Source: Candidatus Bathyarchaeia archaeon (lineage in GTDB: Archaea > Thermoproteota > Bathyarchaeia > Bathyarchaeales > Bathycorpusculaceae). Taken from it: 64,000 nucleotides of DNA. This document shows, in pieces, positions 43,219-54,933 of this stretch. The notes under the pieces were generated by a model that saw only the letters and a program-made list of their open reading frames with translations, did not search any database and was not told the DNA's origin. The stretch covers positions 96,001 through 160,000 of the forward strand of contig JAVZNC010000003.1 in assembly GCA_038882955.1 (NCBI GenBank). The letters are read 5' to 3'. A program made the translations under genes and the position numbers. Numbering within the stretch: the stretch's first letter is position 1; each line of letters opens with the position of its first letter.

Positions 43219-43509
43219 CACGCCTTCTCTTAGATAAGACATCTAATGGTTTCTTATCATCTTCCTTTTTTCTTATTTTCTTTAGTTTTGCCATTTTCTT
43301 TATCCTCTCCTTTTACGTTTATTATTTTGTTATTTGGGGTTTTTAAATGGCAGTAAAGAACTTTCTGTAGTGGTTTCTTCCTTTTCTAACAGACTATGTA
43401 TGAAAAGCGGGAGGTAAAAGCATTCCAGAAGGCGGTTATATTTTTATTTAAGGCTTTGCTATTTGTCGCGTAATACTTATTTAGGCTTGCGCCTTCAAAT
43501 CAATGTGAA

Positions 43510-44823
43510 ATGACCCAAATGAATATTACAACTTCCTTTCTAAAAGATTCTATGATAAAAGGGCAGATTTTTACTTGCACAAATAAGTCAGAGAATGAAT
43601 GCTTTGAGCGTATGCTTTTTGGAACAAACAAACTTTATGCGCCTGCTGTAATGAGAGTAAGAAAAGGAGACCTTTTATTCCTTCTTAATCTGGACACCGA
43701 TATACTTTATGGCGTATTTAGAGCCACTTCTGATGCAAGTATTGATATCGATCCTGAAGCATGGGGAGGAAAGTATCCTTATCAAGTTAAAGTGGAACTT
43801 GTCGGGAAGATACTAATACCTTTAAAAAATGCTAAAAAACTGTTGAAAATACTGAAAATAAAACGCTCTTGCCCGATAAACAAGAAGGTAACTATTAAAC
43901 TCTTTGAACTCTTTCGACCGAGAGATTTGCAAATAGCTGAATGGTATAAACTCTTAAATTCAAATGACATGGCTAACTTAGAAGAAATACAAAAAGAAGA
44001 GCCGAAGTCTTGGGAATTATTCGCTGATTTCAGTGATTTAAAAAGGACTGATTTAGAGCCAGAAGAGGAACTGCCAAATTTAGAAGCCACCACTCTATGG
44101 GATTTTCCAAAACAAAGTTACGGCAAGACGCCTAAAGGTGATAACAAGTATCCCGGAGTTACTCCTGCAGGAGTTATATGGAATCTTGTCTGGAGATACA
44201 CTGAACCTGGGGATTTAGTTGTTGATCCAATGGCAGGTAGTGGAACAACTCTTGATGTATGTAGAGAAGAAGGACGCAGGTGTATCTGTTATGACATCGC
44301 CCCTCAGAGGGCAGATATTATTCAAAATGATTCAAGAGAAATACCTTTGCCAGATGATTACGTGGATTTAGTTTTTGTTGACTCTCCGTATGGAGATAAC
44401 ATAAGATACAATGATAACCCCAATTGTATAGGAAAAATTTCAAGCGAAACTGAAGAATTTTATGAAGAACTCGAAAAAGTGATTAAGGAATGCTATCGAA
44501 TACTAAAACCTGGAAAAGTTCTCGGTTGGCTCATTGGGGATCAGTGGGTAAAAGGAAAGTTTACTCCTGTAGGATTTAAAGTGTATCAGACATTAACTAA
44601 ATATTTTGAAACTCTTGACATAATATGCGTGGTTCGAAGAGGCCAAGCATCTCATACAGGCTTATGGTTCAACCGTGCCAGAAGGTTTAATTTTTTCTTA
44701 CGTGGCTTTAAGTATTTATTTATAATGAAAAAACCATCGCTTGCACATGCTGATGCTGACAAACCGCGAAAAATTAAATGGGCATATTATGAAAGAAATA
44801 CAGTTGGTAAAAATGAAATTTAA
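43510..44823 (+). CDS. DCD-domain / amino (N4C or N6A) DNA methyltransferase fusion
   Basis: N-terminal IFTCTNKSENEC..RMLFG...GDLLFL...LYGVFRA...AW..KYPYQV (DCD); DPMAGSGTT motif I and VDSPY motif IV. Confidence 0.85.
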   Translation: MTQMNITTSFLKDSMIKGQIFTCTNKSENECFERMLFGTNKLYAPAVMRVRKGDLLFLLNLDTDILYGVFRATSDASIDIDPEAWGGKYPYQVKVELVGKILIPLKNAKKLLKILKIKRSCPINKKVTIKLFELFRPRDLQIAEWYKLLNSNDMANLEEIQKEEPKSWELFADFSDLKRTDLEPEEELPNLEATTLWDFPKQSYGKTPKGDNKYPGVTPAGVIWNLVWRYTEPGDLVVDPMAGSGTTLDVCREEGRRCICYDIAPQRADIIQNDSREIPLPDDYVDLVFVDSPYGDNIRYNDNPNCIGKISSETEEFYEELEKVIKECYRILKPGKVLGWLIGDQWVKGKFTPVGFKVYQTLTKYFETLDIICVVRRGQASHTGLWFNRARRFNFFLRGFKYLFIMKKPSLAHADADKPRKIKWAYYERNTVGKNEI

Positions 44824-45508
44824 AGATCTCGTTGGGTTATATGAAGAAAAAAGGCGAATTTACGGAGATGCTACTTATCGGCATATATCTGAGATTTTTG
44901 AGGAGGCTAAAAAACTACACTACAATGATTGGTTAAAGCATCCAACTTCAAAGAAAGATCATGAACAATCGTGGAGGGCTTTTAAAGGGAAAAATTTCGA
45001 GAAGTTGATCTTATACATGATTGAGAAAGAAGTCCAAAGTTTGGGATTAAAAACAGTCAAGGGAGATACGCTTGATAGAACAAGAACCGAAAATCTTAGT
45101 CTCGAGTTAAATAAAGTAAAAAGAAACCTGCTTATTGATTACGGTCAGTTTGGTTGTCATCTTCCTGATGCGGATATTGTAATTTACGAACCTAAAACTT
45201 GCAGAGTTATTGCTATAATTTCAAGTAAAATCACTTTGCGCGAAAGAATTGCTCAGACGGGTTATTGGAAGATTAAACTTTCCAAGGATGAGGTAACTAA
45301 ACATGTAAAAGTGTTTTTTGTAACCACCGACGAAGACGGTGATCTCGTGCGAAGGGCACCAGCTACGAAAGGGAGAGCCATAGTAGAAATTGATACAGAC
45401 GGCGGCTATGTTATGAGTAAAACTCAAGTTGAAGAAGATGATAAAGTGAAAATGTTTGATAAGTTTATTGAAGACTTGAAAAGATGTAGGAATCAAATGT
45501 TAGCATAA
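44813..45508 (+). CDS. Type II restriction endonuclease, BsaWI/Cfr10I-like
   Basis: QSWRAFKGKNFE, LPDADIV, SSKITLRERIAQ (PD...K..RER, typical of CCGG-core enzymes); overlaps MTase stop. Confidence 0.85.
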   Translation: MKFKDLVGLYEEKRRIYGDATYRHISEIFEEAKKLHYNDWLKHPTSKKDHEQSWRAFKGKNFEKLILYMIEKEVQSLGLKTVKGDTLDRTRTENLSLELNKVKRNLLIDYGQFGCHLPDADIVIYEPKTCRVIAIISSKITLRERIAQTGYWKIKLSKDEVTKHVKVFFVTTDEDGDLVRRAPATKGRAIVEIDTDGGYVMSKTQVEEDDKVKMFDKFIEDLKRCRNQMLA

Positions 45509-45529
45509 ATCGGTAACTGCTTTTAAGAT

Positions 45530-46264
45530 TTAAGAGATTCCTTTTAATAAATCACATTCCTTAATTTTGGCTTTGTTGAACCACACAGCAAGAGACCATT
45601 TAGCCATGCATACATCTTTAAAGTTTTTCGATTTCAAGTAAGTTGTTATTTTCTCTGATTTTTTAAGCACTTCTCTAAAAAAATCTTCTCGAACTCTGCA
45701 CCTATTTACTTCATCTTTATTTAACCTAAGAACGCTTGCAACATGGGTATCAAGGATGAGGAGATTATTGTCCATACCGACAAAAATTTTCATAGCTGCT
45801 AAATTTTTGAACGTAACTCTTATTCCTTTGTGAAGCCTTAATTTTTTGAAAATAACAAAAATAGATTGATTTTGTAAAATATGTCCAAAATTTTCCCATG
45901 TGTTATATTCTTTATAAATAACTTCGCAAAGATTCTTCAACTGAATTGAAATTTCATTTCGAAACATTAAAGGCTCTAAAATTTTAGAAATTTTTTCTGC
46001 GGGCATAGACAAAATAACGTTTAAATCAAATAAACGAGTATATTTTGCTAATTTAAAAATCTTAGGTTCAACCTGAACCCATTTTTGAGGTATAGAATAG
46101 AACCAGGAATAAACCACTGCAAATCCTGGGCTAAAATACTCTTTTAGTTTTCGCGCTTTTTTCAAATAATTTTCTGCATCTTTGCCGTTTGAATGGTAGA
46201 TTTCTTCAATTTCCTTGAGTACACTTTGAATTTTTTCCTTTGGTATCTTTGACATTTCAGGCAT
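45530..46264 (-). CDS. Putative HhH-GPD-like DNA glycosylase
   Basis: LRLHKGIRVTFK HhH-like segment followed by LILDTHVASVL. Confidence 0.5.
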   Translation of the reverse strand: MPEMSKIPKEKIQSVLKEIEEIYHSNGKDAENYLKKARKLKEYFSPGFAVVYSWFYSIPQKWVQVEPKIFKLAKYTRLFDLNVILSMPAEKISKILEPLMFRNEISIQLKNLCEVIYKEYNTWENFGHILQNQSIFVIFKKLRLHKGIRVTFKNLAAMKIFVGMDNNLLILDTHVASVLRLNKDEVNRCRVREDFFREVLKKSEKITTYLKSKNFKDVCMAKWSLAVWFNKAKIKECDLLKGIS

Positions 46265-46462
46265 TCTACTGAAAATGTATTAGCTATCCTTTTTTGAATT
46301 TTATTCTTTTCTCGGCTCCAAAAGAGTGGTGCAACGAGTTTTTCCAGTATAAGATTCAATTGGCAACGAAATAACTTTATCAAAACCAAACGCTTAGTCC
46401 GCTTAAGCCACAAAACAAAGTTAACCGTTTCCCCAGCAGCTAAAGGGGGCTGGTTTATGCCG

Positions 46463-46777: not shown

Positions 46778-47878
46778 TTGACAGAAAGGAAAGGCAGCGG
46801 CGCTGGTTCAGGCGGAAGATTTGTTCTTTATAGGGATTTAGATGGAACCGCCTACGAAGTTGATTTGCCTCTGACTTCGCATGTTGACGCTGGGGAACTT
46901 CGGGAAAGTTTGGGTTTGCCTTCATACATAGATTTGAATTATTTTCCGATGAAGAGCGCCATGGTTGTGCTTTGGGCTTCTGTGAACGCGCCTAGGCTTC
47001 ATGAGTTGTACCCGAAAGTTTTTGAGAAGACTGTTAGCAAAAATCCTATTCCGGCGTTGCTTTTTGGCGGCGCAGCCGTGAAGATTCATTGTCCAAGTGC
47101 GAATTGCGGCGGATGCTTAGAAAGGCCGATTAAGGATACGGATTTTATAGTTCCGAAGAAGCAGGGAGTAGATTTTTACAAGCTTTTGTTGAGGATGGAT
47201 GGGGCTTTTGGGACGCAGTACAAGTCTTTCGCCACGGCGAATGATAGGCGGTTTAATGCTTGGAGGCACGGCGAAAGGTATAGGTTAACCACGATTAATG
47301 GGATAACAAGCGAAGGGCTTCCAACGATAACTGTTTTGGACATTTTCTGCGATGCCATAGATTTGAGGCATAAGGTTGACGTTAGAGAAGCATTTGCGAG
47401 TTATAGGGAGAACCTATACACAATAGGTTTGGAGAACCTAATAATTTCAAAGGCGCAGTTCATACTTGACATGCCAAAGGAATGCACGGAAGAACTGAAG
47501 AAGTGCGGATGCGACTACAGGATTCTCTCTTACTCATATTATGCAGAGGACAAAATTGTCGTGGGAATGGAGGAAAAAGACATTAAGGACGTGTGTGCAA
47601 TTTTTTTGGACCATGAAGTTGGTGTTGGAACCGAAGACATAAACGCGCAGAAGATGAAAAAAGCGTTGGAGAAGGATAAGAAACTCGCGTTGACAGTGAC
47701 TCTGAACCTCAAGAACATTGTTGAAAAGGCTGATGCGCTCAAAAAGTGGATGTCGAAGGGCGAAATTTCGAAGGTAACGGAAAGGATAGAGTGTCTCCTC
47801 AAAGAGTTGCCAGTTGTTGACAAGAAGTGGGATAAGCCTTGGTGGAACACCGCCGTTGAAACGCCAACAATCGAGTGA
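46778..47878 (+). CDS. Pol-beta-superfamily nucleotidyltransferase-like protein, paralog 1
   Basis: LFGGAAVKIH, KDTDF, LDIFCD, ISKAQ, KDIKD; TTG start inferred. Confidence 0.75.
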   Translation: MTERKGSGAGSGGRFVLYRDLDGTAYEVDLPLTSHVDAGELRESLGLPSYIDLNYFPMKSAMVVLWASVNAPRLHELYPKVFEKTVSKNPIPALLFGGAAVKIHCPSANCGGCLERPIKDTDFIVPKKQGVDFYKLLLRMDGAFGTQYKSFATANDRRFNAWRHGERYRLTTINGITSEGLPTITVLDIFCDAIDLRHKVDVREAFASYRENLYTIGLENLIISKAQFILDMPKECTEELKKCGCDYRILSYSYYAEDKIVVGMEEKDIKDVCAIFLDHEVGVGTEDINAQKMKKALEKDKKLALTVTLNLKNIVEKADALKKWMSKGEISKVTERIECLLKELPVVDKKWDKPWWNTAVETPTIE

Positions 47879-47879
47879 A

Positions 47880-48773
47880 CTACTTTGCTCTTTTTATCAG
47901 CCTCTTAATCATCGCGTAGGTTTCTTTTCTTGAAAGTCCAGTTCTTGAAAGTGGCAAGTCGAATGTTCCATCTTTTGAATAAAGCCTCAAACATGTTTCG
48001 CGTTTAGGCGTAACGTATATGGTTACATCTGAAAAGTCCGTCCATTTCGCTTCTTTAGCGCTTTTGCCTTCCCAGAGTTTGAAGCCCATGCTGTCCATAA
48101 TAAGCGTCATATGGTAACGTGTCTTGTAGAGGCGGTAACCAACAACAAGTGAAACCATAATTGCAATTAGGAATGAGAGGGGATGCATGGCTTGAGGAAA
48201 ACCGGAGATTGACAAAAAAATTTGGAAAAGCACTATAAACAGTAAAGTTACCGTGAAACTTTTTAAATAGTTTGGAAGGTCGAAAGCCTCTAACTTTGCC
48301 TCTGTCAATTTCAACTGTTTTGCTAAACCTTTTCCAAGAACATTTTCAGAAGTCACTGTTTCCTTTGATTTTAGACTATAGGCGGCGATGCCAACATTTT
48401 TGTCAGCAGTATTCACTATGGCTTCCTTCGTCTCCTTCTGGAATGATTGGGTTTGAACAAGCCCTAGAAAGATCCAGTCTTCAGCGCCAAACTTGCTTTT
48501 ACAAGCCAAAACTAGTTTCCTAACAAGTTTAGGGTCAAAGTTCTGCTGCGTATAAAGCAACAAGTGAATCTTGTATCTTGGCGTAACTAACGCGGAGAAA
48601 ATCTTTGAAAGAAAAAAACCCTTTTCTTGCAAGCTTCCGAAAGCATATAGAGGAAAAACAACGTCACCCACTTGGTAGTCTTCGTGGATTTCGCTGAAAT
48701 TGGCTAGCCACCGTAGGTTTCCACGCACGAGTTGCTCTTCAACGATATCTGTTACAAATTCAAGTTCAGACAA
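47880..48773 (-). CDS. Membrane protein: soluble alpha/beta N-domain, 2 TM, PH-like C-domain
   Basis: Two TM helices followed by KWTDFSDVTIY...CLRLYSKDG pattern resembling bacterial PH domains. Confidence 0.65.
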   Translation of the reverse strand: MSELEFVTDIVEEQLVRGNLRWLANFSEIHEDYQVGDVVFPLYAFGSLQEKGFFLSKIFSALVTPRYKIHLLLYTQQNFDPKLVRKLVLACKSKFGAEDWIFLGLVQTQSFQKETKEAIVNTADKNVGIAAYSLKSKETVTSENVLGKGLAKQLKLTEAKLEAFDLPNYLKSFTVTLLFIVLFQIFLSISGFPQAMHPLSFLIAIMVSLVVGYRLYKTRYHMTLIMDSMGFKLWEGKSAKEAKWTDFSDVTIYVTPKRETCLRLYSKDGTFDLPLSRTGLSRKETYAMIKRLIKRAK

Positions 48774-48831
48774 ACATTAAACACCATGTTTTTGACAGTT
48801 TTAGATGAATAAAAAGGATGGGGTATTTAGG

Positions 48832-50649
48832 CTATTCTGGAGGTATGCTGATGTAAAGCGTACGCATGTCCACGCCTCTGGTCGTATTGCGATACATGTA
48901 ATAGACGTACAACAATATACCAACGATTATACAGCCGAAGAAACCGGCTGCACTGACCACTTCCCACGTTTCCGCACCGGTTTTAAAGAGCGACCAGATC
49001 CATGAAGACTCCTTAATGAAAATGTACAGACAGAAGGCGCCTCCAAGTGTTGCTATAAAACCTAAGCCAACAACAGCGCCTATTGAATGTTTAACGGCTG
49101 CACGGTCGTAGATTTCTCTCCTTTCCAGCGGAAGGAGCATGCACGAAATACAGAATAGCGTTAGGAAGAAGGCGTCAAATATGTCTGTGCCAACAACTCC
49201 CGCAAACGCCAAGTAGTCTGCGGCTCCTTTTGGAAAGTTTGCTTCAGCCATGCACGCTGGAATAGCGAAAACTGCGGTTATTATTATTGACCATACTGGG
49301 GCGTGCCACCTTTCGCTAACGTAGGCGAACTTTTCGGGCATCATTCTATCGAAAGACATGGCGAAGAACGTCCTAGAAGCAACAAGCAAGAATGGCGGAA
49401 TGTCGTTGGCAACCCAGAGTACACCACCCAAAGCGATTAGTATTGCAAGAATTCCTAAATTCATACCAATTGAAGTAATTGACGCTATACCAGTGCTCCA
49501 AGCACTCAAGAAGTTAATTGGACGCGTAGGGTCAATTCCTTTGAATGCCGGATTTGAACTTTCTTGTATATGAGTCCAGTTTCCCTCACCGTACTTTGTA
49601 ATATTTGGGTCAACTCCTACATAGTTGTATGCTGCTTCCCAGTCTACTGGACCGTAGCTTAGAAAAGCATACGCTTGATAGAAGCTCCATTGATTCGGAT
49701 AATCGGTTGTTGTGTCTGTGTAAACTCCCATTGCGGAAAACGCTGAAAGCGATGAAGCCAGTAAGTAAACTATCATTATTATCAGTCCTGCAATAGCAAC
49801 CACTTTAGGAAGTTTCTTATTCGCTTCTTTAACTTCTCCCGCCACAAACGTGGTGGCGTACCAGCCCATGTAAGCCCAGAACGCACCACCTAACGCAACG
49901 GAAAAGGCGCTGAAGAACCCAGTTTTTGCTTCCAACATTCCACTATGAAGAGCTAGATTCACTAAACTTTGAGGCGAAATATTCATTACGGCTTTTACTC
50001 CCTCTTCGACGACGCTTGGATTCGCTATGCCAGCAACCCACATCGCAAAGAAAATTATCGTAATTGCGGCAGGTATGTAAAAGAGCACTTCCATCAATCT
50101 ACCGTAGAGCTTGGTTCCAAGCAGTGCAATTATCGCAAATATCCAAACAATAGCAAGTCCACCTAAGAAGAGTTCAACTGCCCCAAATGAAATGGTAGTC
50201 GGAGCCAACGCGATGTTGAAGAATATCATCACTCCTTCGAACACCGCAACGCCAATTAATCCATAGGAAAAGGCTTCCGCGAGGAACATTAGCCAACCAG
50301 CAATATAGCCTATGGACGGATGTATTACCCTTGAGATTGTGACGTAGCCGCCTCCTGAACGTGGCATTGCTGCGGTCACGTAGCCCGCGGCATAGCCAGT
50401 AATCAACACGATTATGCCGCATACGAGGAAAGCCCAGAACATTGCTGGTAAGCCAAGTGGCATTTCATTTGTTGGCATTGGCGCGGGACCAGTGAATTGG
50501 AATGCTCTCTTTTGCCATCCTAAGCCGACGACGTGGCTCATGATTATAATTATTCCCAGTGTGAAGCCTATTTCGCGTACTAGTCCAGTTGCTTCTCTGG
50601 CGAATAGTCCTGGTTTACTTGAAGCCATTTTCTTATAACACCCGAACAT
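48832..50649 (-). CDS. APC-superfamily transporter with large extracellular loop
   Basis: LFAREATGLVRE, AMPRSGGGY, GEVKEA, SRTFFAMSFDR, terminal IPPE. Confidence 0.9.
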   Translation of the reverse strand: MFGCYKKMASSKPGLFAREATGLVREIGFTLGIIIIMSHVVGLGWQKRAFQFTGPAPMPTNEMPLGLPAMFWAFLVCGIIVLITGYAAGYVTAAMPRSGGGYVTISRVIHPSIGYIAGWLMFLAEAFSYGLIGVAVFEGVMIFFNIALAPTTISFGAVELFLGGLAIVWIFAIIALLGTKLYGRLMEVLFYIPAAITIIFFAMWVAGIANPSVVEEGVKAVMNISPQSLVNLALHSGMLEAKTGFFSAFSVALGGAFWAYMGWYATTFVAGEVKEANKKLPKVVAIAGLIIMIVYLLASSLSAFSAMGVYTDTTTDYPNQWSFYQAYAFLSYGPVDWEAAYNYVGVDPNITKYGEGNWTHIQESSNPAFKGIDPTRPINFLSAWSTGIASITSIGMNLGILAILIALGGVLWVANDIPPFLLVASRTFFAMSFDRMMPEKFAYVSERWHAPVWSIIITAVFAIPACMAEANFPKGAADYLAFAGVVGTDIFDAFFLTLFCISCMLLPLERREIYDRAAVKHSIGAVVGLGFIATLGGAFCLYIFIKESSWIWSLFKTGAETWEVVSAAGFFGCIIVGILLYVYYMYRNTTRGVDMRTLYISIPPE

Positions 50650-50752
50650 CTAGTTTTGGTTCTATCCAGATTTAAAACTTTCCATAAACCCTAAATTTAA
50701 ATAGTGCAAATCCATGATTTACAGTGAAAATAAAGCATAGGAAATGGTTTAA

Positions 50753-51727
50753 TTGGCGTTTCTATTCAAAAAGAAGAAAGAAACCGAAACAAGGATACTG
50801 TTCGCAACAGACATGCATGGCTCAGAAGGCGTGTGGAGAAAATTCCTAAACGCCTCGGCAATGCTTAAGGTGGATGTTGCCATTTGCGGCGGAGACCTAA
50901 CTGGAAAAATGATAGTGCCAGTCGTCAAACATAAGGACGGAAAATACTCATACTACCACCTCAAAAAGACGCACACGGTGAACGAAAACGAAATAGAAAA
51001 AGCCCTGAAGGAAATAAGGGGCATAGGCTATTATCCCTACATCACAAATGAAAGCGAATACGAGGAAATGGTGAAAAGTTCCAAGAAGGTCGACGAGGTT
51101 TTCCACACGGTCATGATTGACACAATAAAGAATTGGCTTGACCTAATTCCGCAGAAGGTTCCAAGCGAAACAAGGGTTGTGGTCTGCCCTGGAAACGACG
51201 ACAGACCAGCCGTAGACGAGATAGTCAACAACCACAAGTACGTGCTGAACGGCGAGGGCAAAGTCATAGAAATTGACGATTCACATGAGATGATAAGCAC
51301 TGGATGGGTGAACCCAAGTCCGTGGAAAACAGCCCGTGAAGAAGAAGAGGAAAAACTCGAAGCGCGACTCGAAAAATATGTTTCGCAGCTTAAAAACCAC
51401 GAAAACGCCATATTCAACTTTCACGCTCCCCCATACCAGTCAAAGCTCGACGAAGCCCCACTTTTAGACAAAGACTTAAACCCAGTAATCCAAGGCGGAA
51501 GCGTCGTCATGGTTCCAGTAGGCTCAAAAGCAGTTAGGAAAATGATTGAAAAATACCAGCCTTTCCTCGGGCTTCATGGGCACATACACGAGGCAGCTGG
51601 CTCAATGAGAATCGGAAAGACATACTGCGTAAACCCCGGAAGCGAATACGCAGAAGGCATCCTAAGAGCCTTCCTAATAGAGTTCAAAGGCAACAAAATA
51701 ACGAGGCTACAGCGAATAGAAGGCTAA
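50753..51727 (+). CDS. Icc-like calcineurin-type metallophosphoesterase
   Basis: TDMHG, GGDLTG, PGNDD, HAPP, HGHIHE, NPGS. Confidence 0.92.
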   Translation: MAFLFKKKKETETRILFATDMHGSEGVWRKFLNASAMLKVDVAICGGDLTGKMIVPVVKHKDGKYSYYHLKKTHTVNENEIEKALKEIRGIGYYPYITNESEYEEMVKSSKKVDEVFHTVMIDTIKNWLDLIPQKVPSETRVVVCPGNDDRPAVDEIVNNHKYVLNGEGKVIEIDDSHEMISTGWVNPSPWKTAREEEEEKLEARLEKYVSQLKNHENAIFNFHAPPYQSKLDEAPLLDKDLNPVIQGGSVVMVPVGSKAVRKMIEKYQPFLGLHGHIHEAAGSMRIGKTYCVNPGSEYAEGILRAFLIEFKGNKITRLQRIEG

Positions 51728-51746
51728 GCGCGAGGGAAACGAAGCC

Positions 51747-52676
51747 ATGGCTTGGCTTCTTGATAGGGAAATTAAACGTGAACTGCCAGAGGAATGGAAT
51801 GGCATAGTTCCAACAGAAATTTTCATCCAAGAATCCAAGGAAATCGTTGAAAAGGCAAGGCAGGAAGGCATAATCCTAAGAATCCTCGGCGGACTAAGCA
51901 TAGCAATTCACTGCGAAGAGCATAGGGACTTTGCGCAAAAACTCGGCAGAATCGGAACCGGCGTAATTGAAGGACAAGAGTACAGCGACATAGACCTCGT
52001 TTCATATCGCGGCCACAGAGATAAAGTGAAAGAGTTATTCGAAAAGTTGAGCTATGCGAAAAGGAGAGCGACGCTTTCAACGGCAGCGTCTGAAAGGCAA
52101 ATCTACTTCCACCCCAAAGGCTGGTTTTATGTGGACGTTTTCTTCGACAAACTCTTGGTGGCAAACCACCCAATAGACTTCAAGGGAAGACTTGAACTCG
52201 ACTATCCAACAATAACTGTGACAGACATGCTCCTAGAAAAGATCCAAATGTGGGAAGCTTTCAGCGCAAAAGACCTAAAAGACTGCCTATTGCTTCTAAA
52301 GGCACACAACATAAGCGGAAAAACAGAGAAAGAAAGCATAGACGCCGCGTACATAGCAAAACTGTTAGCAGAAGACTGGGGATTCTGGTACACAGCAACA
52401 ACAAACCTCCAAAAAATAAGGGTGTTCCTAATGGAAATTGACAGGCTCGGCCAAGAAGCAGGCATAGACCCAAAACAAATAACGAAAGAAGATAGAGAAG
52501 AAATAATACAAAAAATAGACAAAATATTGGAAACAATCGAAAAAGAACCGAAAACCTTCGGATGGAAAATGCGCGCAAAAATAGGAACAAAAAAGCAATG
52601 GTACAACCCAGTTGAACGTCCAGAAACAGTCGGCGGATTCGGAATATGGGAAACATTACTAAAAGGAGAAAGCTGA
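51747..52676 (+). CDS. Pol-beta-superfamily nucleotidyltransferase-like protein, paralog 2
   Basis: ILGGLSIAIH, SDIDL, VDVFFD, LLEKIQ, KDLKD. Confidence 0.8.
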   Translation: MAWLLDREIKRELPEEWNGIVPTEIFIQESKEIVEKARQEGIILRILGGLSIAIHCEEHRDFAQKLGRIGTGVIEGQEYSDIDLVSYRGHRDKVKELFEKLSYAKRRATLSTAASERQIYFHPKGWFYVDVFFDKLLVANHPIDFKGRLELDYPTITVTDMLLEKIQMWEAFSAKDLKDCLLLLKAHNISGKTEKESIDAAYIAKLLAEDWGFWYTATTNLQKIRVFLMEIDRLGQEAGIDPKQITKEDREEIIQKIDKILETIEKEPKTFGWKMRAKIGTKKQWYNPVERPETVGGFGIWETLLKGES

Positions 52677-52853: not shown

Positions 52854-52928
52854 GCTTAACTTTGATTTTTGGCGAATGTTTAAATTGTGGTTTTTTGCTG
52901 TTTATTGCCTTCTTTAAGTGATGTTGGC

Positions 52929-53726
52929 ATGTGGGAGTGGTTGCTTCCGCTGTTTGGCTTCTTGATAAGCATAGCTGCGGCTTTAACGGGTGTTGGAGGC
53001 GGAATATTCATAGTGCCGTTGTTAACGCTTCTTTACGGTTTTGAACCTGTAGTGGCTGTTGGCACAAGCCTAGCCACTATAATAATTACTTCTGTAGCCT
53101 CTTCGGCGAATTATTTGAAGCAGAATCGCGTTTATGTCAAGGCTGGACTGGTTTTGGCTTGCACTACCACTCCCGGCGGCTATGTTGGCGCGGCCATTAC
53201 TGCGGTTCCAGTTGTTAAAATGTGGCTTGGCGTTATTTTCGGCATTTTCCTAATCATTGTTGCGGTTCAGATGGTGTACAAGGCTTTGTCCACAAAATCT
53301 GTTAAGGGCTGCGGTGTTGTTGACGCTGCCTTTGAGAAGTCGCTTCTAAAAGACTGGAGGAAGATGCTTTCTGGCTTGTTCTTGGGATTTTTCGGAGGCG
53401 TAGCCTCTGGACTGCTCGGCATAGGCGGAGGAACAGTTCTCGTGCCAGTCATGTGTTACGCACTTGGCTTTCCAATTCATTTCGCTATACCCACATCAAT
53501 GTTTATCATGATTTTCACTTCAATTTCTGGCGTCATCAACCACGTGCAACAAGGAAACGTGAATAGCTTGCATGCAGTCTATCTTGGAATTGGAGCGGTT
53601 TTGGGCGCTCAGGTTGGCGCTTACGCAAGCAGAAAGCTTTCGAGTAGGAATTTGAGTTTGGTTTTCGCTGCGATGCTTGTGGTTGCGAGTGTAAATATGA
53701 TATTGAAGAATCTGCATTACATTTAG
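52929..53726 (+). CDS. TauE/SafE sulfite exporter family protein
   Basis: GVGGGIFIVP, AVGTSL, GIGGGTVLVP. Confidence 0.9.
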   Translation: MWEWLLPLFGFLISIAAALTGVGGGIFIVPLLTLLYGFEPVVAVGTSLATIIITSVASSANYLKQNRVYVKAGLVLACTTTPGGYVGAAITAVPVVKMWLGVIFGIFLIIVAVQMVYKALSTKSVKGCGVVDAAFEKSLLKDWRKMLSGLFLGFFGGVASGLLGIGGGTVLVPVMCYALGFPIHFAIPTSMFIMIFTSISGVINHVQQGNVNSLHAVYLGIGAVLGAQVGAYASRKLSSRNLSLVFAAMLVVASVNMILKNLHYI

Positions 53727-53808
53727 TCTTTATTGCATATCTTACTTGGAATATCCTAAAATTTATAACCAAGCGTTTTGTAGTTTCTCGAAAAGGTGAG
53801 TTAAAAGC

Positions 53809-54933
53809 GTGTTTGAAGTGGCTACGCTATTTGCAACTATACTTATGCAGATTGACATTCAGCAGATTCTAAGCCTGCTCTTCTACATCGTATTCATAGT
53901 CTTCATTTTTTATGGACAAAGAATCCAAATGTACGTCATGTTAAGGGAAGTTGAAGGCTCACTTTTCAAGCTTAAATACATAAAGGATGAGGGGAGAAAA
54001 ATCGCCATAGAAACAATCAAGGAGATTGGAAAGCCCCAGTCAGACCCAACCGTTAGGGTTGACAGGTTCCTCGAATACTTCACAATATCGCCTCAAAGCC
54101 TTGACCCAGCGGGCGTTGTTTGGAAGCTTGAGCACATTCTCGACGTGAGAGATGTGCGTTTCAAGGATGAAGTTAAGCTTATGGCGCCCTCGGCTGACGA
54201 AACACAAACTAACAATTTGGAGAACACGCTTGAGGCGGCTATGGCTTTAAACTACATTTACAAGGTTATAAGGCACTATTACTTGCTTGGCAAGAAAACG
54301 TTAAGCCTATACATAATAATGCAGTTGCAGATGATACTGCCCCTAGTGATGCGCGAGGCGGAAGCCTACGCAAGCGCGTTAAAGGCTTTTGCATATGGAC
54401 AACCAATAGGCGACGGTGCCGGCGCATTGGTTGCAGCTAAACTTATGCGGGGATATGAAACGCGAAAAGTTCCCAAAGACTGTGTTGTGGCAACAGTTCC
54501 AATGGAGGGACGGACAGCATTCGTGATTAAGGCTGAAGGGCCGGGGGGAAACGTTGGCAAGATAGGCGATGCCATAAAAACGGTTATTGAGGAGAATGAG
54601 GGAAAAATTGCCACAATAATAATGATTGATGCAGCCATGAAGTTGGAAGGCGAGGATGTCGGCGAGGTTGCAGAGGGTGTCGGCGCAGCTATAGGCGGTC
54701 CTGGCGTTGACCAGTTTAAGATTGAGGAGTCTATTTTGAAGTATCGGATACCAATAAACGCTGTTATAATCAAGGAGGATATTGGAGATGCTGTTTCGCC
54801 AATGCGCAAGGAAATCTTTGAGGCTGCCGACAAGGCTATAGAGCGTGTGAAGCAAGTTATTTTGGAGAAAACGAAGGAAGGAGACAAAGTGATAATTGCG
54901 GGGGTTGGTAACACCATTGGAATTGGTCAGTGA
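53809..54933 (+). CDS. DUF1512-family protein
   Basis: LDPAG, PIGDGAG, AEGPGG, IDAAMKLEGE, GVGNTIGIGQ. Confidence 0.85.
   Translation: MFEVATLFATILMQIDIQQILSLLFYIVFIVFIFYGQRIQMYVMLREVEGSLFKLKYIKDEGRKIAIETIKEIGKPQSDPTVRVDRFLEYFTISPQSLDPAGVVWKLEHILDVRDVRFKDEVKLMAPSADETQTNNLENTLEAAMALNYIYKVIRHYYLLGKKTLSLYIIMQLQMILPLVMREAEAYASALKAFAYGQPIGDGAGALVAAKLMRGYETRKVPKDCVVATVPMEGRTAFVIKAEGPGGNVGKIGDAIKTVIEENEGKIATIIMIDAAMKLEGEDVGEVAEGVGAAIGGPGVDQFKIEESILKYRIPINAVIIKEDIGDAVSPMRKEIFEAADKAIERVKQVILEKTKEGDKVIIAGVGNTIGIGQ

Follow-up and report, generated by a model that had tools for sequence, protein, structure and literature searches.

A 64,000-nucleotide stretch of the genome of a Candidatus Bathyarchaeia archaeon (assembly GCA_038882955.1, contig JAVZNC010000003.1, positions 96,001 to 160,000 of the forward strand; hereafter the window) was analyzed for a cluster of five genes, which an original prediction made from the sequence had described as two paralogous nucleotidyltransferases, a metallophosphoesterase, an APC transporter, and a membrane protein, together forming a candidate writer/eraser nucleotidylylation system. 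All five open reading frames (ORFs), referred to here as A to E, were recovered at the predicted coordinates by the ORF listing of the window (Table 1), as was the 19-bp gap between the stop codon of D and the start codon of E. Genes A and B are convergent, with 1 bp between them, and C and D are divergent and separated by approximately 100 bp, the true start of C possibly lying a few codons downstream of its first ATG. The two hydrophobic segments claimed for B were located at residues 173 to 191 and 195 to 213; a hydropathy scan detected no such segment in A, D, or E, indicating that A is soluble. None of A, B, and E matched a profile in Pfam, NCBIfam, or PADLOC, so that the PH-like part predicted for B drew no profile match in these databases. 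This bathyarchaeal locus is an enlarged version of a widespread three-gene unit, or triad, made up of a permease (C), a predicted nucleotidyltransferase (E), and a metallophosphoesterase (D).

Table 1. Genes and sequence features of the five-gene locus (window coordinates; residue numbers in parentheses)
Feature	Position	Strand	Description and basis
A	46778-47878	+	366 amino acids (aa) from TTG 46778, inside an ORF open from ATG 46661
A motif I (GG 97-98) to motif II (DTD 120-122)	47066..47143	+	Motif definitions of PMC3985639
A motif IV KDIKD (267-271), +DxxD pentad	47576..47590	+	Motif match
B	47880-48773	-	297 aa; membrane protein, hairpin of two hydrophobic segments
C	48832-50649	-	605 aa from first ATG; divergent APC subfamily permease
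C cytoplasmic C-terminal tail TTRGVDMRTLYISIPPE	48835..48885	-	Subfamily signature at the extreme C terminus
C/D divergent intergenic region	50650..50752	.	Presumed promoters, from the coordinates
D	50753-51727	+	324 aa; cytoplasmic metallophosphoesterase, full metal-ligand set
D GNDD (147-150)	51191..51202	+	Family alignment
E	51747-52676	+	309 aa; predicted nucleotidyltransferase of the triad
E motif I (GG 48-49) to motif II (DID 81-83)	51888..51995	+	Family alignment and motif match
E D130, third carboxylate	52134..52136	+	Aligns with the E of 'VELHW' in NTP_transf_5
E motif III K165 and motif IV K175-D176-x-x-D179	52239..52283	+	Alignment; definitions of PMC3985639

Genes C, D, and E are inherited together

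As the original prediction would have it, nucleotidyltransferase, phosphoesterase, and APC transporter genes co-occur, and strongly so, in both archaea and bacteria. Gene neighborhoods were collected for 100 loci, 20 from 151 Bathyarchaeia-class genomes and 80 named loci from species-representative genomes, the latter retrieved with a 19-sequence alignment of the E family that confirmed 580 relatives in such genomes. The named loci span Bathyarchaeia, several Asgard lineages, Thermococci, Nitrososphaerales, many Chloroflexota/Anaerolineales, Caldiserica, and Methylomirabilota; a D-family gene was found in 63 of them and a C-family gene in 47. When all 100 loci were scanned with family hidden Markov models, 107 E genes were recovered, with D within 5 kb of 82, C within 5 kb of 78, and both within 5 kb of 74. 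For E genes with at least 5 kb of flanking sequence on each side, both D and C lay within 5 kb in 50 of 62 cases, these 50 triads being distributed among Bathyarchaeia, Asgard archaea, Thermococci, Chloroflexota, and Caldiserica. D and E are adjacent (less than 300 bp apart) in 38 of 107 cases, the order and orientation of the triad genes vary, and several triads may share a contig (three in locus L049 and two in L041).

Presence and absence of the three families across the 151 Bathyarchaeia-class genomes followed the same pattern. The number of genomes with a detected member was 41 for E, 39 for D, and 37 for the C subfamily; by comparison of the three lists, all three were present in 35, at least one in 43, only some in 8, and none in 108. 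The partial cases comprise three genomes with degraded or fragmentary E genes (G020, G116, and G150), three genomes that are 58-87% complete (G040, G057, and G103), and two missing C alone: in G045, which is 74% complete, E and a partial D sit where a contig begins, and in G054 both genes lie no more than 4 kb from such a start. Across 31 family-level groups, within which related genomes are not independent, the distribution is patchy, and the copy numbers of the families run in parallel, as in G063 with 13 E and 14 D genes. When congruence was computed from p-distances over 62 triads (loci L032-L131), again including related genomes that are not independent, D and C were found to co-diversify (Spearman 0.56; clade adjusted mutual information [AMI] 0.54-0.65). 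Altogether, the results show a near-obligate co-occurrence of C, D, and E, three core genes that are inherited together.

The genome that holds the window carries a second complete triad (G000:C5:13358-17600, locus L051), composed of E, a C gene whose product ends in YGELPPE, an unnamed 232-aa membrane protein, and D. Its E is the third E-type gene of this genome, with the D paralogue 2.5 kb away, and the triad adjoins an S-Me-THD-like (DUF917) gene and an RraA-like aldolase gene.

None of 50,697 phage records contained the E family, and of 72,556 plasmid records 1 did, namely, a Halobellus megaplasmid that carries the whole triad; this near-absence counts against a mobile toxin-antitoxin or defense element. 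The plasmid in question, NZ_CP031312.1 of the cultured haloarchaeon Halobellus limi, bears the triad at positions 386259-389795 (L200), annotated in RefSeq as a metallophosphoesterase, a hypothetical protein, and an APC family permease, next to genes for IclR, an iron alcohol dehydrogenase, and an aldehyde dehydrogenase. The tail of this permease is a variant, ...GVDLDNLHSEIPKD.

The description of the locus as a five-gene unit stands in part. The five genes do stay together in seven genomes (the window and six further loci), but the conserved unit is the triad, and A and B are an add-on confined to a small Bathyarchaeia subgroup, with genuine A genes in 9 of the 151 Bathyarchaeia-class genomes. 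In each of the six orthologous loci fetched with their flanks, all five genes are present and A is convergent with an adjacent B, in one of two arrangements: E follows D in L032, L033, L035, and L036 and lies beside A in L037 and L038. Members of the B family are found in 12 of the 100 loci, and the Atlas neighbors of B are unnamed Bathyarchaeota clusters throughout. A second copy of A in the window's assembly (G000:C10:485-1603; 82% identical) is followed by a ProC-like ORF rather than by B or the rest of the module; its contig C10 (17 kb) matches the window at 77-82% DNA identity and is probably a homologous region from a co-binned related strain, the assembly contamination being 6.09%. Another membrane-protein family of approximately 230 aa, which has no Pfam model and carries the C-terminal motif ...DY.GI.IVKKP..WRKYY.V, occurs in 14 others of the 100 loci (L041, L045, L051, L054, L056-L059, L063, L064, L068, L070, L078, and L089), among them the second triad of the window's genome, and in those inspected it is located within the triad or next to it; no relationship between it and B was detectable by hhalign (1.6%).

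The original prediction had allowed that the cluster might map to a known catabolic pathway; the catabolic genes next to the triad were found instead to vary by lineage. In Anaerolineales, the neighbors encode DAO+GCV_T oxidases, choline-kinase-like kinases, DeoR, CBS proteins, class-II aldolase, HAD proteins, and aminotransferases, and other Chloroflexota triads lie near FGGY kinases, DeoC, and GntR; across Chloroflexota loci, glycerol-kinase-like FGGY, DAO/Fe-S, Fe-ADH_2, and choline-kinase-like neighbors are seen. Asgard and Bathyarchaeia triads are accompanied by MttB with its corrinoid protein, and archaeal triads by class-III aminotransferases, nitroreductases, luciferase-like oxidoreductases, M20 peptidases, and an S-Me-THD-like protein. 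CBS-domain proteins occur in 28 of the 100 loci, mostly from one lineage (Chloroflexota). The common theme of these surroundings is the breakdown of amines and amino acid derivatives.

Upstream of A, the window carries a restriction-modification pair (43510-45508), in which the gene of an N4/N6 DNA methylase with an N-terminal DCD (Dev_Cell_Death, PF10539) domain overlaps that of a BsaWI-type restriction endonuclease. The pair sits in a stretch of low G+C content (0.35 at 44-46 kb) and, with an ORF at 45530-46264 that weakly matches DUF5844, makes up a segment of approximately 43227-46461. In the homologous contig C10, this segment is missing and window position 43226 is joined directly to about 46462, so we regard the segment as a recent insertion unrelated to the module. 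Downstream of E are a TauE/SafE-type exporter gene and a DUF1512 gene (52887-54933); DUF1512 recurs in orthologous loci L032, L033, and L036 and TauE in L033, which looks like lineage synteny outside the module. Two hot-spring runs labeled metatranscriptomic, which are probably DNA, contained contigs approximately 90% alike over all 30 bins and were uninformative on expression.

Conserved features of the permease, the phosphoesterase, and the nucleotidyltransferase-like proteins

The assignment of C as an APC transporter was borne out by matches to AA_permease_2 (PF13520; 75.3 bits against a cut-off of 27) and PF00324 (74.4 bits). C falls far below all NCBIfam/TIGRFAM subfamily cut-offs, the best being TIGR00909 with 69.7 versus 556.8 bits, and none of the named APC subfamilies (2A03xx, FrlA, BcaP, ethanolamine permease, etc.) was reached by any of the 60 C-family members scanned; the nearest solved relative is GkApcT (PDB 5oqt; E value, 5e-29). 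The subfamily is marked by a C-terminal signature, G[IV][DP]xxxx[FY]x[EQ][IV]PP[EADV], and 70 of 75 full-length members end in P[PTVSA]x, a tail that one generic APC permease from the same genome lacks. When complexes of the last 40 residues of C with D and E were predicted with the tail as the partner, scores of 0.37, 0.02, and 0.16 (median, 0.16, against a mark of 0.32) spoke neither for nor against binding.

D was predicted to be an intact phosphoesterase, and it matches Pfam Metallophos (PF00149) with 25.9 bits against a cut-off of 21.5. In an alignment of 54 sequences, the invariant or near-invariant residues of the D family were D20 and H22, G47 and D48, G147, N148, D149, and D150, H224, and H277 and H279. 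These correspond to the full set of calcineurin-like metal-ligand motifs, i.e., DxH, GD, GN[HD][DE], H, and GHxH, with the third reading GNDD where we take the canonical metallophosphoesterase motif to be GNH[DE]. The most frequent Pfam match of the family is Metallophos_3 (44 of 54 members), and the solved chain nearest to D is aq_1956 (PDB 2yvt; E value, 2.4e-4). A weak match of the D profile to LpxH, a pyrophosphate-cleaving metallophosphoesterase (E value, 0.003), and a match of D to the PADLOC candidate model PDC-S10 (1.3e-8) were also observed.

Six ordered motifs had been claimed to be shared by A and E, and five of these are present in the same order in both proteins: GG.[AS]..IH (A 97, E 48), D.D (A 120, E 81), D[IV]F.D (A 188, E 130), H..D (A 198, E 141), and KD.KD (A 267, E 175), each found once per protein except for an additional D.D at A 20 (DLD). 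The sixth had been given with the wrong spacing; TI....[IL].K.Q fits neither protein, whereas TI.....[IL]..K.Q fits both (A 215, E 155). Among the 3078 ORFs of at least 80 aa in this genome, only A and E contain the full ordered pattern. That the two are paralogous was confirmed by profile comparison. Pairwise BLASTP between A and E was not significant (best E value, 0.057), and hhalign with alignments of close relatives alone (A1 and A2) gave 86.4% (E value, 4.7e-6). With a diverse E-family alignment of 118 sequences at no more than 50% identity, hhalign aligned the E family to the A family at 99.5% (E value, 1e-22) over 219 columns, evidence of distant but true homology, and the A-family profile cross-matched the C-terminal part of E-family genes in other genomes (1e-11 to 1e-13). 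The E family comprises 2018 relatives, or 1701 representatives at 50% identity, and the 525 relatives of A are all annotated as hypothetical. A search for fused forms among longer proteins turned up one of 451 aa, and three long representatives carry a MarR-type helix-turn-helix, an AhpC/TSA domain, or nothing; none of these was informative.

Conservation within the families maps onto the nucleotidyltransferase active site. In the 118 E-family sequences, D81, D83, H141, K165, D179, W211, and W285 are invariant and R45, G48, R117, D130, K175, and D176 nearly so, and the A family has invariant G97, G98, D120, D122, D188, H198, K225, Q227, K267, D268, and D271; the Pol-beta signature hG[GS] ... 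[DE]h[DE]h ... followed by a third carboxylate is thus conserved in both. For AbiEii/DUF1814 proteins, the motif definitions of Dy et al. (PMC3985639) list hGG, an R three residues before DhD, a lysine in a hydrophobic helix, and a +DxxD pentad, and the mutagenesis described there identifies as essential the G of motif I, the R and both D residues of motif II, the K of motif III, and the D of motif IV. E retains each residue that this mutagenesis found to be required (PMC3985639). All four motifs are common to A and E, and the K...KDxxD tail that had been likened to AbiEii/MenT proteins does correspond to motifs III and IV, lying in register in the hhalign alignment of the E family with bona fide AbiEii (39.9%; E value, 3e-4).

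The curated family nearest to E is NTP_transf_5 (PF14907), annotated as an uncharacterized nucleotidyltransferase and so termed in the relevant passage of the sole paper naming it. Sub-threshold matches to it were obtained from 61 of the 118 diverse E-family members (best, 3e-6), and hhalign of the E family against 25 bona fide members gave 92.5% (E value, 4.8e-7) over 183 columns that cover G..A, R..DxD, the third acidic residue, and the helical domain. The nearest named Atlas clusters to E (0.92-0.95) bear the same family. The window E itself, however, scores 13.8 bits (E value, 0.042) against a gathering cut-off of 31.2 and is thus below threshold, and the bona fide members compared are 330-470 aa in length versus about 260 aa. 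A has no PF14907 match, and its family gives nothing against PF14907 by hhalign, being linked to it solely via E. AbiEii/MenT (DUF1814, PF08843) is more distant: PF08843 is matched by neither A nor E of the window and only weakly by 6 of the 118 family members, the A family compared directly with AbiEii gives nothing, and no AbiEi-type or MenA antitoxin was seen among 10 scanned locus ORFs or among frequent neighbor clusters, the partners of the E family being a phosphoesterase and a permease. Four of the 118 members weakly match MdcG. No PADLOC match for CBASS/CD-NTase or other cataloged defense systems was obtained with A, B, or E, and C matches a generic 'AA transporter' model.

PDB sequence searches with A or E singly returned nothing significant. 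AlphaFold2 models built from shallow alignments of close relatives had mean predicted local distance difference test scores (pLDDT) of 59.8 and 57.0 for the two proteins, with catalytic cores (E 70-155, A 118-215) below 50; VIA fold searches with these low-pLDDT models list nucleotidyltransferases, i.e., 5uvd (Z 6.6), 4ok0, MenT1, MenT4, TglT, and ANT(2''), all with Z below 8. Altogether, the conserved residues support the view that A and E are catalytically intact nucleotidyltransferase-type proteins, and we conclude that they are predicted active enzymes of an unmodeled family within the Pol-beta nucleotidyltransferase superfamily, near NTP_transf_5 and DUF1814.

A possible nucleotidylylation switch and its alternatives

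The reading that we favor, if only tentatively and by a narrow margin, is that the module constitutes a writer/eraser nucleotidylylation switch dedicated to the permease. C would import an amine-type organic nitrogen compound, and E (and A) would use a nucleoside triphosphate to place a nucleoside monophosphate (NMP) on a hydroxyl of the permease or of a small membrane partner such as B. The NMP on the transport machinery would then switch uptake, turning it up or down, and D would hydrolyze the phosphodiester to reset the switch. In its logic such a switch would follow the GlnD-PII-AmtB system, though with different folds and for a single permease. Consistent with this proposal, a transferase and a hydrolase of opposite action resemble a cycle rather than a pathway step; kinases and lyases are already present in the contexts of the triad. 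Other observations point the same way: the triad stays constant while the surrounding pathways change, the cytoplasmic tail of the permease is conserved and specific to the subfamily, and A lies beside the membrane protein B in all six orthologous loci, forming a second nucleotidyltransferase/membrane-protein pair. Characterized relatives from the DUF1814 group, moreover, act on macromolecules, as the account of MenT acting on tRNA in PMC11375011 indicates.

Several observations weigh against this switch. As many as 13 or 14 triads occur in a single genome, every one equipped with a D and an E of its own, an arrangement commoner for substrate-specific enzymes than for regulators. A writer that recognizes its permease should track it, and E tracks neither C nor D in the congruence analysis (Spearman 0.20; AMI 0.02-0.36). 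Outside generic APC motifs, no Ser, Thr, Tyr, or His is conserved in the cytoplasmic parts of C; the Tyr of the tail was considered as the nucleotide acceptor and rejected, the position being F in many members. The AlphaFold2 models of A and E are unreliable in the very cores that would carry out the reaction. Finally, a tail-bearing permease of the same genome (G000:C4:145302-146876; ...YGELPPE) has no D or E detected alongside, and it may be served in trans or be an orphan.

Scarcely less probable is the reading that the cargo rather than the carrier is nucleotidylylated: C would admit an amine-type solute, E would add NMP to the cargo or its phosphate, thereby trapping it so that little free cargo remains or activating it, and D would later split the phosphodiester or pyrophosphate bond and so release the cargo for the neighboring pathway, with a different cargo for each triad. 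The many triads per genome, in which each permease paralogue has its own D and E, would suit such a scheme, as would the operon-like C-D-E orders inside catabolic islands, the congruence of D clades with C clades, and the fact that no conserved protein acceptor was found in C. Weak likenesses to small-molecule enzymes point in the same direction, namely, that of E to ANT(2'') (Aminoglyc_resit matched by 5 of 118 members; PDB AadB, E value 1.5 over GG...DID; VIA Z 4.7 to 4xje) and that of the D profile to LpxH; all the small-molecule nucleotidyltransferase matches, however, are below significance. The two reactions would also cancel each other in contexts that already contain kinases, no catabolic route known to us requires an NMP adduct, and E fails to co-diversify with C, though a cargo-specific enzyme should. 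The congruence of D and C without E fits neither the switch nor cargo nucleotidylylation neatly and serves as a lead only.

That same congruent pair of D and C is the starting point for another reading, which we consider improbable, in which D works on an imported phosphoester or phosphodiester cargo such as a phospho- or glycerophospho-amine and E regulates or modifies D. The closeness of D and E (19 bp apart here and within 300 bp in the 38 cases given above) and the FGGY, DAO/Fe-S, Fe-ADH_2, and choline-kinase-like neighbors in Chloroflexota would be in keeping with it. Kinases beside the triad point to an unphosphorylated cargo, however, nothing in these data shows an action of E on D, and APC permeases carrying phosphorylated cargo are not known to us.

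It is less probable still that E (and A) would nucleotidylate tRNA or another RNA in a growth-control or defense system like MenT/AbiEii, with D reversing or antagonizing the modification and the permease a passenger or trigger. The four DUF1814 motifs in register with AbiEii, the weak VIA similarity of E (Z 5.1-5.3) and A (Z 4.4-4.6) to MenT1, MenT4, and TglT, the PDC-S10 match of D, the patchy multi-copy distribution, and the restriction-modification pair just upstream could all be cited for it. Yet no AbiEi-type or other antitoxin family was seen at the locus, A and E have no PADLOC match, the E family is nearly absent from phage and plasmid records, the neighbors are overwhelmingly metabolic, and the restriction-modification segment is an insertion missing from the homologous contig; a near-obligate tie to a 12-transmembrane permease with intact APC motifs is likewise not what such a system would lead one to expect.

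At a slightly lower probability again, E might make a nucleotide second messenger that gates the permease and D degrade it. A synthase-like nucleotidyltransferase is indeed paired here with a phosphodiesterase-like enzyme, and CBS domains, which bind adenosyl ligands, are encoded in the 28 loci mentioned above. A diffusible signal would cross-talk among the many triads of one cell, however, neither A nor E has a CD-NTase-type PADLOC match, and the CBS genes are mostly from Chloroflexota, so kinship may explain them. Chance neighborhood or lineage-specific synteny without shared function, to which the many loci from related genomes with shared gene order might incline one, can be all but dismissed, as the triad recurs in two domains of life in differing orders and orientations, presence and absence coincide across 31 family-level groups, and the five window genes stay together in two arrangements.

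Beyond the single locus, we put forward as a doubtful generalization that the whole APC subfamily may work only with a dedicated nucleotidyltransferase and phosphoesterase, the nucleotidylylation cycle serving either as a covalent on/off switch or as cargo-trapping 'vectorial nucleotidylylation,' and that the Bathyarchaeia version adds a second writer, A, aimed at B. A literature search found no study of the gene combination or of the E family, in agreement with the original statement that no function had been characterized for this combination. The new elements are the five-gene form of Bathyarchaeia, in which a further nucleotidyltransferase paralogue is present; the tail signature of the permease; the table of presence and absence for the three families; and the finding that D and C are congruent and E is not. 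The module is abundant, spans two domains of life, and is located within catabolic islands for nitrogen compounds in uncultured organisms of sediment and soil (Bathyarchaeia, Asgard archaea, and Anaerolineales). Were the two enzymes to govern or power uptake, a principle new to secondary transporters would be at work, and it would offer a handle for predicting the diet of the carrier organisms; either switching or trapping would represent a mode of transport control or energization not described for such transporters. Because the cultured Halobellus limi carries the triad, experiments are feasible.

Comparison with known systems

Among characterized small-molecule enzymes, ANT(2'')-Ia (AadB) is, like E, a small two-domain nucleotidyltransferase with the GG...R..DID segment; the C-terminal domain of E and its motifs III and IV follow DUF1814 instead, the matches are below significance, and the triad has no resistance context. 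D, for its part, has the same metal-ligand set as the aq_1956/Metallophos_3/YfcE-type phosphodiesterases, from which it differs by an insert of approximately 90 residues after the GD motif with conserved residues of its own (K52, P56, G92, Y94, and W128). We know of no established physiological substrate for aq_1956/YfcE-type proteins.

At the level of the whole unit, choline uptake and activation of the licABC type resembles the triad in that a permease and a nucleotidyltransferase are encoded together, and Chloroflexota triads adjoin choline-kinase-like genes. The licABC genes encode a permease, a kinase, and a cytidylyltransferase, LicC, which has another fold; they have no phosphoesterase partner, and the contexts of the triad are catabolic and diverse.

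A system that parallels the proposed switch in logic only is AmtB-GlnK-GlnD, i.e., the ammonium channel, its PII protein, and a uridylyltransferase/uridylyl-removing enzyme with an HD domain. No PII or GlnD-type domain was found among the locus ORFs scanned, the writer and eraser would be separate proteins here, one DUF1814-like and the other calcineurin-like, the transporter belongs to the APC family, and one pair would serve each permease. The lack of a PII or GlnD domain among these ORFs lowers the likelihood that the module is a GlnD system, not that it works like one: both combine a nitrogen-compound transporter, in our case a predicted one, with a Pol-beta-type nucleotidyltransferase and a metal-dependent hydrolase that removes, or would remove, the nucleotide.

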